Shown one piece after another: positions 34,163 through 38,972 of a stretch of 64,000 nucleotides of DNA (position 1 is its first letter; every line of letters begins with the position of its first letter). The notes under the pieces were generated by a model. It saw only the letters and a program-made list of their open reading frames with translations, did no database searches and was not told the DNA's origin. The stretch lies in the NCBI RefSeq assembly GCF_055900595.2, contig NZ_CM148325.1; one strand, written 5' to 3'. The position numbers and the translations under genes are program-made.

Positions 34163-35818
34163 ATGACGAATCTTCCCCACTGGTGGCAAAACGGCGTTAT
34201 CTACCAGATTTATCCCAAGAGTTTTCAGGACACCACGGGCAGCGGTACCGGCGATTTACGTGGCGTTATCCAACGCCTGGACTATCTGCAAAAACTGGGC
34301 GTCGATGCTATCTGGTTGACCCCCTTTTATGTCTCTCCCCAGGTCGATAACGGATACGACGTAGCGAACTATACGGCGATAGATCCCACTTACGGTACGC
34401 TGGACGATTTTGACGAACTGGTGACGCAGGCGAAATCGCGCGGCATTCGTATCATTCTCGATATGGTGTTTAATCATACTTCTACCCAACATACCTGGTT
34501 TCGCGAGGCGCTGAGCAAAGAAAGCCCTTACCGTCAGTTTTATATCTGGCGCGATGGTGAACCAGAAACGCCACCGAATAACTGGCGTTCAAAATTTGGC
34601 GGTAGTGCGTGGCGCTGGCATGCGGAAAGCGAACAGTACTATTTGCATCTCTTTGCACCAGAACAGGCGGATCTCAACTGGGAGAATCCGACGGTACGCG
34701 CAGAACTGAAAAAAGTCTGTGAGTTCTGGGCCGATCGCGGGGTCGATGGGTTACGCCTGGATGTAGTGAATTTGATCTCTAAAGATCCGCGTTTTCCTAA
34801 TGACCTGGATGGCGACGGGCGTCGCTTCTACACCGACGGGCCACGAGCACACGAGTTTTTGCACGAGATGAACCGCGATGTGTTTACGCCTCGCGGTTTA
34901 ATGACCGTGGGTGAAATGTCCTCCACCAGCCTTGAGCATTGCCAGCGATACGCGGCACTAACAGGCAGTGAATTGTCGATGACCTTTAATTTTCATCACC
35001 TGAAGGTCGATTATCCCGGTGGTGAAAAATGGACGCTGGCTAAACCTGACTTTGTGGCGTTGAAAGCATTGTTCCGCCACTGGCAACAAGGAATGCACAA
35101 CGTGGCATGGAATGCCTTGTTCTGGTGTAACCACGATCAGCCGCGCATTGTTTCTCGTTTTGGTGATGAAGGGGACTACCGCGAACCTGCGGCAAAAATG
35201 CTGGCGATGGTGCTGCATGGCATGCAGGGAACGCCATATATCTATCAGGGCGAAGAGATTGGCATGACTAACCCACATTTCACGCGCATTACTGACTATC
35301 GCGACGTGGAGAGCCTCAATATGTTTGCCGAACTGCGCAACGATGGGCGTGACGCCGAGGAGTTATTGGCAATCCTCGCCAGTAAATCCCGTGACAATAG
35401 TCGCACGCCAATGCAATGGAGCAACGGCGATAATGCCGGGTTTACAACGGGTGAACCGTGGATTGGCCTGGGCGATAACTATCAAGAAATCAACGTAGAA
35501 GCCGCGCTGGCCGATGAGTCCTCGGTGTTTTACACCTACCAAAAGTTAATCGCACTGCGTAAGCAAGAAGCCGTCCTGACATGGGGCAATTACCAGGATC
35601 TGCTGCCAGACAGCCCTGTATTGTGGTGCTATCGCCGTGAATGGAAGGGGCAAACCTTGCTGGTCATTGCCAACCTTAGCCGTGAGATCCAACCCTGGCA
35701 GCCAGGGCAAATGCGCGGAAACTGGCAGCTTGTGATGCATAACTACGAAGAAGTCTCAGCACAACCCTGTGCCATGACTTTACGGCCTTTTGAGGCCGTC
35801 TGGTGGTTACAGAAGTAA
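34163..35818 (+). CDS. treC: Trehalose-6-phosphate hydrolase, GH13 (551 aa)
   Basis: Translation MTNLPHWWQNGVIYQIYPKSFQDTTGSGTGDL... with GH13 motifs DAIWLTPF and GVDGLRLDVV; the ORF-track start at 34016 is an over-extension. Confidence 0.9.
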   Translation: MTNLPHWWQNGVIYQIYPKSFQDTTGSGTGDLRGVIQRLDYLQKLGVDAIWLTPFYVSPQVDNGYDVANYTAIDPTYGTLDDFDELVTQAKSRGIRIILDMVFNHTSTQHTWFREALSKESPYRQFYIWRDGEPETPPNNWRSKFGGSAWRWHAESEQYYLHLFAPEQADLNWENPTVRAELKKVCEFWADRGVDGLRLDVVNLISKDPRFPNDLDGDGRRFYTDGPRAHEFLHEMNRDVFTPRGLMTVGEMSSTSLEHCQRYAALTGSELSMTFNFHHLKVDYPGGEKWTLAKPDFVALKALFRHWQQGMHNVAWNALFWCNHDQPRIVSRFGDEGDYREPAAKMLAMVLHGMQGTPYIYQGEEIGMTNPHFTRITDYRDVESLNMFAELRNDGRDAEELLAILASKSRDNSRTPMQWSNGDNAGFTTGEPWIGLGDNYQEINVEAALADESSVFYTYQKLIALRKQEAVLTWGNYQDLLPDSPVLWCYRREWKGQTLLVIANLSREIQPWQPGQMRGNWQLVMHNYEEVSAQPCAMTLRPFEAVWWLQK

Positions 35819-35830
35819 GTATCCGCTAAG

Positions 35831-35860
35831 CCCCGGTAATACTGGTCATTCCGGGGTTTT
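35831..35860 (+). terminator. Putative treC terminator
   Basis: ccccgg-(14-nt loop)-ccgggg followed by tttt, 13 nt after the treC stop. Confidence 0.45.
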
Positions 35861-35962
35861 GCCTTTCAGTATGTTGTTTTTGTTGATTTTATAATCAAAA
35901 AATTCATTAAAAAATTTACATAACGCTGTAGCGCCCGTCATCCGTACGCTCTGCTTTTTACT

Positions 35963-36019
35963 TTGAGCTACATCAAAAAAAGTTCAAACATCCTTGATGC
36001 AAAGCACTATATATAGACT
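35963..36019. promoter_or_regulatory. Putative FNR boxes and NrdR-box-like palindrome upstream of nrdD
   Basis: TTGAGctacATCAA (35963-35976) and TTGATgcaaAGCAC (35995-36008) match the FNR TTGAT-N4-ATCAA pattern; the overlapping cactatatatag resembles an NrdR box. Confidence 0.4.
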
Positions 36020-36211
36020 TTAAAATGCGTCCCGACCCAATATGTTGTATTAATCGACTATAATTGCTACTACAGCTCCCCACGAAAAAGGTGCGGCGTT
36101 GTGGATAAGCGGATGGCGATTGCGGAAAGCACCGGAAAACGAAACGAAAAAACCGGAAAACGCCTTTCCCAATTTCTGTGGATAACCTGTTCTTAAAAAT
36201 ATGGAGCGATC

Positions 36212-38350
36212 ATGACACCGCATGTGATGAAACGAGACGGCTGCAAAGTGCCGTTTAAATCAGAGCGCATCAAAGAAGCGATTCTGCGTGCAGCTAAAGC
36301 AGCGGAAGTCGATGATGCAGATTATTGCGCCACTGTTGCCGCGGTTGTCAGCGAGCAGATGCAGGGCCGCAGCCAGGTGGATATCAACGAGATCCAGACC
36401 GCCGTTGAAAACCAGCTGATGTCGGGTCCATACAAACAACTGGCTCGTGCTTACATCGAGTACCGTCACGATCGCGACATTGAACGTGAAAAACGCGGTC
36501 GCCTGAATCAGGAGATCCGTGGTCTGGTCGAGCAGACCAACGCCTCGTTGCTCAACGAAAACGCCAACAAAGACAGCAAGGTGATTCCAACCCAGCGCGA
36601 CCTGCTGGCCGGGATTGTGGCTAAACACTATGCACGTCAGCACCTGCTGCCGCGTGACGTGGTGCAGGCGCATGAGCGTGGCGATATTCACTATCACGAT
36701 CTCGATTACTCGCCGTTCTTCCCGATGTTCAACTGCATGTTGATCGACCTGAAAGGTATGCTGACCCAGGGCTTTAAGATGGGTAACGCCGAGATTGAAC
36801 CACCGAAGTCGATCTCTACGGCAACCGCGGTAACAGCGCAGATTATTGCTCAGGTCGCCAGTCATATTTATGGCGGCACCACCATTAACCGTATCGATGA
36901 AGTGCTGGCACCGTTTGTCACCGCCAGCTACAACAAACACCGCAAGACCGCAGAAGAGTGGAACATCCCGGACGCCGAAGGTTACGCTAACTCTCGTACC
37001 ATCAAAGAGTGCTACGATGCCTTCCAGTCGCTGGAGTACGAAGTAAACACCCTGCACACCGCCAACGGTCAAACACCGTTTGTGACCTTTGGTTTTGGTC
37101 TGGGCACCAGCTGGGAGTCTCGCCTGATTCAGGAGTCTATCCTGCGTAACCGTATCGCTGGCCTGGGTAAAAACCGCAAAACTGCGGTGTTCCCGAAACT
37201 GGTGTTTGCGATTCGCGATGGCCTGAACCATAAAAAAGGCGATCCGAACTACGACATCAAACAGCTGGCGCTGGAGTGCGCAAGCAAGCGCATGTATCCG
37301 GATATCCTGAACTACGATCAGGTAGTGAAAGTCACCGGTTCGTTTAAAACCCCGATGGGCTGCCGTAGCTTCCTCGGCGTGTGGGAAAATGAAAACGGCG
37401 AACAGATCCACGATGGTCGTAACAACCTCGGCGTGATCAGCCTGAACCTACCGCGCATTGCGCTGGAAGCGAAAGGCGATGAGGCCACCTTCTGGAAGCT
37501 GCTGGATGAACGTCTGGTGCTGGCACGTAAGGCGCTGATGACCCGTATCGCTCGTCTCGAAGGCGTTAAAGCGCGCGTGGCCCCGATCCTCTATATGGAA
37601 GGTGCTTGTGGCGTTCGTCTGAATGCTGACGACGACGTTTCTGAAATCTTCAAAAACGGTCGTGCGTCTATTTCGCTGGGTTACATCGGCATCCACGAAA
37701 CCATTAACGCGCTGTTTGGCGGCGAGCATGTGTATGATAACGAGCAGCTGCGCGCGAAAGGTATCGCCATTGTTGAACGTCTGCGTCAGGCGGTGGATCA
37801 GTGGAAAGAAGAAACGGGTTACGGTTTTAGCCTTTACAGCACGCCAAGTGAAAACCTGTGCGACCGCTTCTGCCGTCTCGATACCGCGGAGTTTGGCGTG
37901 GTGCCGGGCGTGACTGATAAAGGTTACTACACCAACAGTTTCCACCTCGATGTGGAGAAGAAGGTGAACCCGTACGACAAGATCGACTTTGAAGCGCCTT
38001 ACCCGCCGCTGGCGAACGGTGGCTTCATTTGCTACGGCGAATATCCAAACATTCAGCACAACCTGAAGGCGCTGGAAGATGTCTGGGATTACAGCTATCA
38101 GCATGTACCGTATTACGGCACCAATACGCCGATTGATGAGTGTTACGAGTGTGGTTTTACCGGTGAGTTTGAGTGCACCAGTAAAGGCTTCACCTGCCCG
38201 AAATGTGGTAACCATGACGCCTCCCGTGTGTCGGTGACTCGCCGCGTGTGCGGATATTTAGGTAGCCCGGATGCGCGTCCGTTTAACGCTGGTAAGCAGG
38301 AAGAAGTTAAGCGCCGCGTTAAACATTTGGGAAATGGGCAGATCGGTTAA
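36212..38350 (+). CDS. nrdD: Anaerobic ribonucleoside-triphosphate reductase (712 aa)
   Basis: C-terminal glycyl-radical motif RVCGYLG and the Zn-ribbon cysteines CYECGF...CPKCG. Confidence 0.95.
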   Translation: MTPHVMKRDGCKVPFKSERIKEAILRAAKAAEVDDADYCATVAAVVSEQMQGRSQVDINEIQTAVENQLMSGPYKQLARAYIEYRHDRDIEREKRGRLNQEIRGLVEQTNASLLNENANKDSKVIPTQRDLLAGIVAKHYARQHLLPRDVVQAHERGDIHYHDLDYSPFFPMFNCMLIDLKGMLTQGFKMGNAEIEPPKSISTATAVTAQIIAQVASHIYGGTTINRIDEVLAPFVTASYNKHRKTAEEWNIPDAEGYANSRTIKECYDAFQSLEYEVNTLHTANGQTPFVTFGFGLGTSWESRLIQESILRNRIAGLGKNRKTAVFPKLVFAIRDGLNHKKGDPNYDIKQLALECASKRMYPDILNYDQVVKVTGSFKTPMGCRSFLGVWENENGEQIHDGRNNLGVISLNLPRIALEAKGDEATFWKLLDERLVLARKALMTRIARLEGVKARVAPILYMEGACGVRLNADDDVSEIFKNGRASISLGYIGIHETINALFGGEHVYDNEQLRAKGIAIVERLRQAVDQWKEETGYGFSLYSTPSENLCDRFCRLDTAEFGVVPGVTDKGYYTNSFHLDVEKKVNPYDKIDFEAPYPPLANGGFICYGEYPNIQHNLKALEDVWDYSYQHVPYYGTNTPIDECYECGFTGEFECTSKGFTCPKCGNHDASRVSVTRRVCGYLGSPDARPFNAGKQEEVKRRVKHLGNGQIG

Positions 38351-38457: not shown

Positions 38458-38507
38458 GTTGATTGCCTGATACCGCCTACACGCGGACTGATAAGCCAGG
38501 CGAAATA

Positions 38508-38972
38508 ATGAATTATCATCAGTACTATCCTGTCGACATCGTCAACGGCCCCGGCACTCGCTGCACCCTGTTTGTCTCCGGGTGTGTTCATGAATGCCCC
38601 GGTTGCTATAACAAAAGCACCTGGCGGGTAAATTCCGGTCAGCCATTTACCAAAGCAATGGAAGACCAGATCATTAACGATCTGAATGACACCCGCATCA
38701 AACGCCAGGGTATTTCCCTCTCCGGCGGCGATCCGCTGCATCCGCAAAACGTGCCGGATATTCTGAAACTGGTACAACGCATCCGCGCCGAATGTCCGGG
38801 TAAAGACATCTGGGTGTGGACAGGCTATAAACTCGACGAACTCAACGCTGCGCAAATGCAGGTTGTTGATTTGATTAACGTGCTGGTCGACGGCAAATTT
38901 ATGCAGGATCTAAAAGACCCTTCCCTGATCTGGCGCGGCAGCAGCAATCAGGTGGTGCATCATTTGCGTTAG
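38508..38972 (+). CDS. nrdG: Anaerobic RNR activating enzyme, radical SAM (154 aa)
   Basis: Translation MNYHQYYPVDIVNGPGTRCTLFVSGCVHECPGCYN... with the CxxxCxxC cluster; the ORF-track start at 38463 is an over-extension. Confidence 0.9.
   Translation: MNYHQYYPVDIVNGPGTRCTLFVSGCVHECPGCYNKSTWRVNSGQPFTKAMEDQIINDLNDTRIKRQGISLSGGDPLHPQNVPDILKLVQRIRAECPGKDIWVWTGYKLDELNAAQMQVVDLINVLVDGKFMQDLKDPSLIWRGSSNQVVHHLR

Follow-up and report, generated by a model that had tools for sequence, protein, structure and literature searches.

We found that positions 35963-36050 of the window (the whole 64,000-nucleotide stretch of DNA analysed) almost certainly form the regulatory core of the nrdDG promoter of Escherichia coli, comprising two FNR dyads and, downstream, two NrdR boxes around the core promoter elements. 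Control of this promoter by FNR and NrdR is already known, and nothing is new in the sites and their spacing, in the binding proteins or in the physiological logic, all of which have been published for E. coli K-12 and Salmonella. Here we establish, for this window, the positions of the sites, their statistical strength, their near identity to DNA used in experiments, and their conservation.

Results

The window belongs to E. coli: over the 461 bases that surround the sites it is 100% identical to E. coli strain Z0117EC0005 and ~96.5% identical to K-12-type genomes. The sites lie on the plus strand in the 393-bp treC–nrdD intergenic region, upstream of nrdDG. On the upstream side treC ends at 35818 (NCBIfam equivalog model and RefSeq annotation). 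Downstream, nrdD (36212-38350, plus strand) encodes the anaerobic ribonucleoside-triphosphate reductase of 712 aa (NCBIfam equivalog NF006732, 1219.8 bits; RefSeq also annotates nrdD), and an open reading frame at 38463-38972 (plus strand) holds nrdG, the gene for the activating enzyme (NCBIfam NF008335, 312 bits, residues 16-169), the match starting at residue 16, or ~38508.

The K-12 nrdD promoter, nrdDp, was reportedly described by Boston and Atlung in 2003 and by Roca et al. in 2008 as carrying tandem FNR sites at -64.5 and -33.5. The window has the same flanking genes, the same dyad 14-mers, the same 31-bp spacing and the same -10 hexamer. Alignment with a K-12-type genome from 35925 to the nrdD start codon revealed two differences only, both outside the FNR dyads and the NrdR boxes; divergence was greater upstream of 35925. 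The first, at 35983 (T in the window, C in K-12), falls in the spacer between the FNR sites, and the second, at 36034 (G in the window, A in K-12), falls on the predicted +1, which is also the last linker base between the NrdR boxes. G at 36034 is the state in ~80% of the sequences of an alignment of 55 Enterobacteriaceae, and K-12 thus holds the minority base. We would expect neither difference to have a functional effect. A 98-bp region with the sites was found in 5425 of 5426 complete E. coli genomes, 83 records being identical to the window.

The original prediction had assigned the sites by eye, proposing that TTGAGctacATCAA and TTGATgcaaAGCAC fit the FNR dyad and that cactatatatag, with a second A/T-rich palindromic stretch about 30 bp downstream, resembles tandem NrdR boxes. 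All three strings are present, at 35963-35976, 35994-36007 and 36005-36016, respectively, and the downstream stretch corresponds to ACCCAATATGTTGTAT at 36035-36050, whose centre lies 31 bp from that of the first box. Judged against the experimentally defined sites the assignment was correct to the base, the boxes being refined here to 16-mers.

Against the consensus TTGAT-N4-ATCAA, TTGAGctacATCAA has one mismatch and TTGATgcaaAGCAC two. At up to two mismatches, the window contained 49 matches versus 37 ± 5.5 expected in shuffled sequences. Since consensus matching does not discriminate FNR dyads, we replaced the consensus scan by a weight matrix derived from 62 other ChIP-supported FNR sites (Table S6, Myers et al. 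2013, PMC3688515), with the nrdD site left out. The distal dyad (35963-35976, plus strand) scored 17.9 bits and ranked first among 63,987 positions, with 0.02 such matches expected per shuffled window, and is by weight matrix an FNR operator. The same site was recovered in the K-12 FNR ChIP-seq study, in which the peak at nrdD was found by all methods and assigned to TTGATGTAGCTCAA, the reverse complement of window 35963-35976, with a PatSer score of 15.68 that exceeds the precision-recall threshold of that study (PMC3688515, Tables S5/S6).

The proximal dyad (35994-36007, plus strand) is weak. It scored 10.7 bits (rank 11; 4.6 expected by chance), which is below the lowest-scoring training site (11.7 bits), and it is missing from the list of high-quality sites of the ChIP study (PMC3688515). 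The matrix scan thus upheld the predicted distal dyad and left the proximal one below threshold. The two dyads lie 31 bp apart from centre to centre, a distance that is also given by the published site centres. A 54-bp E. coli nrdDG oligonucleotide that was used for FNR binding and small-angle X-ray scattering (SAXS) is identical to window 35959-36012 apart from one spacer base, 35983 (PMC10425943). As reported in those parts of this paper that treat the nrdDG sites, which cite Roca et al. 2008 and summarise data from EMSA and mutagenesis, the FNR motifs are centred at -33.5 (site 1, our proximal site) and -64.5 (site 2 or FNR-2, our distal site); site 2 binds FNR more tightly and is necessary and sufficient for nrdDG expression, and site 1 merely boosts expression (PMC10425943). 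Both sites were occupied in SEC-SAXS, and two FNR dimers are bound in the SAXS model (PMC10425943). We accept the proximal dyad as a weak auxiliary site on account of its 31-bp phasing, its conservation and its published binding and mutagenesis, and not of its matrix score. A low matrix score, which the original prediction had named as grounds for rejection, was formally found for this site alone, where it is outweighed by conservation and the published experiments. A weight-matrix threshold by itself would have discarded a genuine auxiliary FNR site.

The site centres, -33.5 and -64.5, do not coincide with the positions from which FNR canonically activates (-41.5, or -61.5 and farther from the start), and the authors of the SAXS study call the mechanism of activation "a remaining mystery" (PMC10425943).

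We used the published site centres, as given in this secondary citation, to place the core promoter elements. They put the transcription start (+1) at 36034 on the plus strand and the -10 hexamer TAAAAT at 36021-36026, within the 15-bp linker between the NrdR boxes. The geometry of the FNR dyads relative to this conserved -10 hexamer agrees with the published -64.5 and -33.5, the start site being a derived one and the positions non-canonical. Comparison with the mapped K-12 promoter, which had been proposed as a check, gave matching spacing and two base differences outside the sites. Five of the six bases of TAAAAT are at least 99.9% identical (marked with a star in the alignment) across the 55 Enterobacteriaceae. 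We found no acceptable -35 hexamer for TAAAAT, and a simple promoter scan of 35780-36260 returned no sigma-70 promoter, a result that is uninformative for an activator-dependent promoter; both absences are expected if the promoter depends on an activator. Our literature search yielded no usable genome-wide or primer-extension start-site data for nrdD. A perfect -10 sequence, TATAAT, lies at 36059-36064, just downstream of NrdR box 2, and might be a minor second promoter. We rejected it as the alternative nrdD promoter: it has no recognisable -35, is partly conserved and has no published support.

Operators of NrdR in gamma-proteobacteria are reportedly made of two 16-bp palindromic boxes separated by a linker of 15-16 bp, as described by Rodionov and Gelfand in 2005 and by Torrents et al. 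in 2007. The window contains box 1, GCACTATATATAGACT, at 36004-36019 (-30 to -15) and box 2, ACCCAATATGTTGTAT, at 36035-36050 (+2 to +17), both on the plus strand; cactatatatag lies within box 1. They are separated by a 15-bp linker, their centres are exactly 31 bp apart, and box 1 shares 4 bp with the proximal FNR site. Each box has three mismatches (13 of 16 positions matching) to the consensus acaCwAtATaTwgtgt (ACACWATATATWGTGT), and at up to three mismatches this consensus occurs in just these two places in 64 kb versus 0.56 expected. A crude NrdR matrix, made from only the four boxes of the other two E. coli RNR operons (nrdHIEF and nrdAB), ranked the two boxes first and second in the window with 0.16 expected, bearing out the proposed tandem NrdR boxes. 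From the match rates, we estimate that chance alone would produce two such matches at the canonical 31-bp spacing in roughly one of 10^5 to 10^6 windows. The boxes are 162-208 bp upstream of nrdD and flank the -10 hexamer and the predicted +1 of an RNR operon, and the arrangement has what defines an NrdR operator: two 16-bp palindromic boxes, a linker of 15-16 bp (31-32 bp between centres) and a location in an RNR promoter. The K-12 nrdR gene itself is located far from the nrdDG locus.

With 14.1 and 13.8 bits, two other 16-mers, at 18706-18721 and 18784-18799, equalled the real boxes in score. Both lie in an A/T-rich open reading frame on the minus strand (18189-19412), at a distance of 78 bp from each other, and we rejected them as probable chance matches in view of their non-canonical spacing and of a matrix that was built from only four sites.

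Binding of NrdR to the nrdDG boxes has been measured. A 57-bp nrdDG probe bound E. coli NrdR with a KD of ~160 nM in the presence of ATP plus dATP and of ~150 nM with ADP plus dATP, and there was no binding with ATP alone (PMC12176259). The probe, with its published 15-bp linker, is laid out as 5+16+15+16+5, which sets the box boundaries at 36004-36019 and 36035-36050, and it is identical to window 35999-36055 apart from one linker base, the last one (36034) (PMC12176259). Nothing substantial thus distinguishes the window from this probe, and it shares with the gamma-proteobacterial NrdR operators of that study the two boxes, the 15-bp linker and the overlap with the RNR core promoter (PMC12176259). 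In Salmonella, according to those sections of the published study that cover the nrd promoters, mutations in NrdR boxes derepress nrd promoter fusions, as shown for nrdAB, and nrdDG box mutants were assayed alongside in one figure; an overlap of NrdR box 1 of nrdDG with an FNR site is pointed out as well (PMC2892513). As far as these sections describe it, the Salmonella Typhimurium nrdDG promoter has the same architecture as the window, including the overlap of box 1 with the proximal FNR site (PMC2892513). The near identity of the window to the published FNR and NrdR probes supports the original reading of anaerobic and dNTP-responsive control.

To follow the sites across species, we scanned GTDB representative genomes for NrdD, which gave 80 loci across Enterobacterales. 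Among the 57 Enterobacteriaceae loci scanned (L002-L058), nearly all retain at least one of the FNR dyads, which lie at ~-249 and ~-218 relative to the start codon, with a spacing of 31 bp wherever both were detected, and the NrdR boxes are at ~-208 and ~-177. In the alignment of 55 distinct Enterobacteriaceae upstream regions, all four elements stand out as conserved islands: mean identity to the window was 0.93 for the proximal FNR site, 0.85 for NrdR box 2, 0.82 for the linker containing the -10 hexamer, 0.81 for NrdR box 1 and 0.77 for the distal FNR site, whose TTG and ATCAA reach an identity of at least 99.9% (again starred), versus 0.39-0.51 for the leader outside any site.

These data bear on whether the sites could be chance resemblances in A/T-rich intergenic DNA that have no regulatory role, as the lack of enrichment of FNR consensus matches (49 versus 37 expected) might suggest. 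The matrix ranks (first for the distal FNR site, first and second for the NrdR boxes) argue otherwise, as do the 31-bp and 15-bp spacings, which are exactly as published, the strong conservation of the sites amid a variable leader, and the published binding to probes each of which departs from the window by a single base. We regard the idea of chance resemblance as effectively refuted already and give it next to no credence.

Conservation is also informative on the role of the proximal dyad. Most genera carry a better one, TTGATgcaaATCAC, with the half-site ATCAC; the half-site AGCAC was seen in Escherichia and a few other scanned loci only. Conversely, the left half TTGAG of the distal dyad in E. 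coli is unusual, as TTGTT or TTGTC takes its place in most other genera. Set against L005-L058 at 36004 and 35966-35967, Escherichia combines a weaker proximal half-site with a distal left half that is better, and the balance between the two FNR sites appears to have changed from genus to genus. The loci of Salmonella enterica diarizonae and arizonae have their sites at the same positions from the start codon as the window, with TTGTTctacGTCAA as the distal and TTGATgcaaATCAC as the proximal site, so that by mismatch counts the strong and weak FNR sites are reversed relative to E. coli.

It has to be asked whether the distal dyad is the sole working FNR site, with 35994-36007 being kept as a -35 region or as the edge of the NrdR operator and FNR at this place being irrelevant or inhibitory in vivo. 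The proximal score (10.7 bits, rank 11, 4.6 expected), lower than that of every training site, would fit such a role, as would the ChIP list of high-quality sites, which has the distal site only (PMC3688515), the centre at -33.5, which overlaps the -35 region in a position typical of repression, and the mechanism of activation left unexplained by the SAXS authors (PMC10425943). Yet the TTGAT half at 35994-35998, which NrdR box 1 does not reach, hardly varies, the dyad is a better one in most genera, and its 31-bp phasing to the distal site is kept in nearly all scanned Enterobacteriaceae loci. We therefore consider a single working FNR site improbable and retain two, of which the proximal one is auxiliary.

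Outside the Enterobacteriaceae, the loci from Edwardsiella, Hafnia, Serratia, Yersinia, Brenneria, Pectobacterium and Dickeya (L062-L080) showed a rearranged layout 30-210 bp upstream of nrdD, with a single FNR-like dyad and a pair of NrdR boxes at 31-bp spacing. In these loci NrdR box 2 is directly adjoined by a TTATCCACA box, which often has a second one, CATCCACA, beside it and is followed by a GC-rich hairpin-like stretch and a convergent TGTGGATAA. The combination of FNR, NrdR and DnaA motifs is thus kept, in rearranged form, in Yersinia, Serratia, Pectobacterium, Dickeya and Hafnia, and the adjacency of NrdR and DnaA sites suggests a possible interplay.

The 178-nt nrdD leader of the window also contains DnaA boxes. 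A perfect box, TGTGGATAA, is located at 36100-36108 on the plus strand (+67 to +75; identity 0.998 in the 55 Enterobacteriaceae), and a double box, TGTGGATAAccTGTTCTTAA, at 36177-36196 on the plus strand, just upstream of the ribosome-binding site. The double box is composed of a second perfect 9-mer at 36177-36185 (identity 0.994) and a weaker partner, TGTTCTTAA, 2 bp further downstream at 36188-36196. It has the form of a DnaA box pair, a TTATCCACA 9-mer with a closely spaced second box, and its occupancy comes from published ChIP-seq. The two perfect boxes are the most conserved elements of the intergenic region (at least 0.99); they are conserved more strictly than any FNR or NrdR base, and the leader between them varies freely. 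A DnaA ChIP-seq study of 2024 reported a peak at nrdD with 62-fold coverage and lists tTTAAGAACAggTTATCCACAg, the reverse complement of window 36176-36197; the window therefore carries the same double box as the DnaA-bound nrdD upstream region (PMC11317965). Furthermore, NrdD protein increases in a DARS2 deletion (PMC12371093). In the literature examined we found no experiment that directly addresses how the DnaA boxes affect nrdD expression.

These observations could be taken to mean that nrdDG is controlled mainly by DnaA, which would occupy the leader boxes downstream of +1 and act there as a roadblock or repressor, and that FNR and NrdR are the lesser controllers. The exceptional conservation of the boxes, the ChIP-seq peak (PMC11317965) and the rise of NrdD upon deletion of DARS2 (PMC12371093) speak in favour of it. 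However, control by DnaA would come on top of that by FNR and NrdR, with which it is compatible; experiments have established both FNR dependence and repression by NrdR, and a direct test of the boxes is not among the literature examined. DnaA as the main controller is in our view very improbable, and we keep FNR and NrdR in this role. Whether DnaA contributes is a separate matter: with more doubt than confidence, we suggest that DnaA-ATP on the leader boxes could either form a roadblock after initiation or work together with NrdR, the binding being published and the regulatory role our own proposal.

An Rfam scan of 35780-36300 (E up to 1) detected no known riboswitch or sRNA in the leader. 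The sole match, STnc410, was rejected as noise, with 15 bits against a gathering score of 50 and an E value of 0.83.

Several other features were observed in the upstream part of the intergenic region. A treC terminator-like hairpin lies at 35830-35861 (GCCCCGG...CCGGGG followed by TTTT); it escaped our terminator scan, which admits loops of 3-8 nt, presumably on account of its 14-nt loop, and several of the differences from K-12 cluster just around it. A perfect inverted repeat, TTGAT-N6-ATCAA (TTGATTTTATAATCAA), is found at 35883-35898 (~-143.5). It is poorly conserved, K-12 carrying TTGATTTTTCAACCAG in its place, and its half-sites are FNR-like, yet a spacer of 6 bp does not fit FNR. A conserved block, AGCGCCCGTCAT, lies at 35929-35941 (~-105 to -93), upstream of the distal FNR site, and a conserved TTTTTAC at 35955-35961 is immediately beside the distal dyad.

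Discussion

FNR and NrdR binding, FNR dependence and nucleotide dependence at the nrdDG promoter are taken from the literature, and from the published work on K-12 we infer how the promoter would operate in the strain analysed here. Upon anoxia, [4Fe-4S] FNR dimers would occupy the strong distal dyad at -64.5 and the weak proximal dyad at -33.5; since these are three helical turns apart, both dimers would lie on the same face of the DNA. They would then recruit sigma-70 RNA polymerase to a promoter with a good -10 (TAAAAT) and without a usable -35, the distal site being presumably necessary and sufficient for activation and the proximal site probably adding a boost only.

NrdR loaded with ATP and dATP would occlude the core promoter. 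Because its boxes lie on either side of the -10 hexamer and +1, with box 1 extending into FNR site 1, bound NrdR would be predicted from this geometry to exclude polymerase and probably also FNR at site 1. With ATP only, NrdR would form higher oligomers that do not bind the operator, and repression would be lifted.

In the published physiological logic, FNR turns on the oxygen-sensitive class III reductase only in anoxia, and NrdR dampens every RNR operon at times of abundant dATP. If DnaA does act at the leader boxes, it would couple the anaerobic supply of dNTPs to the initiation of replication.
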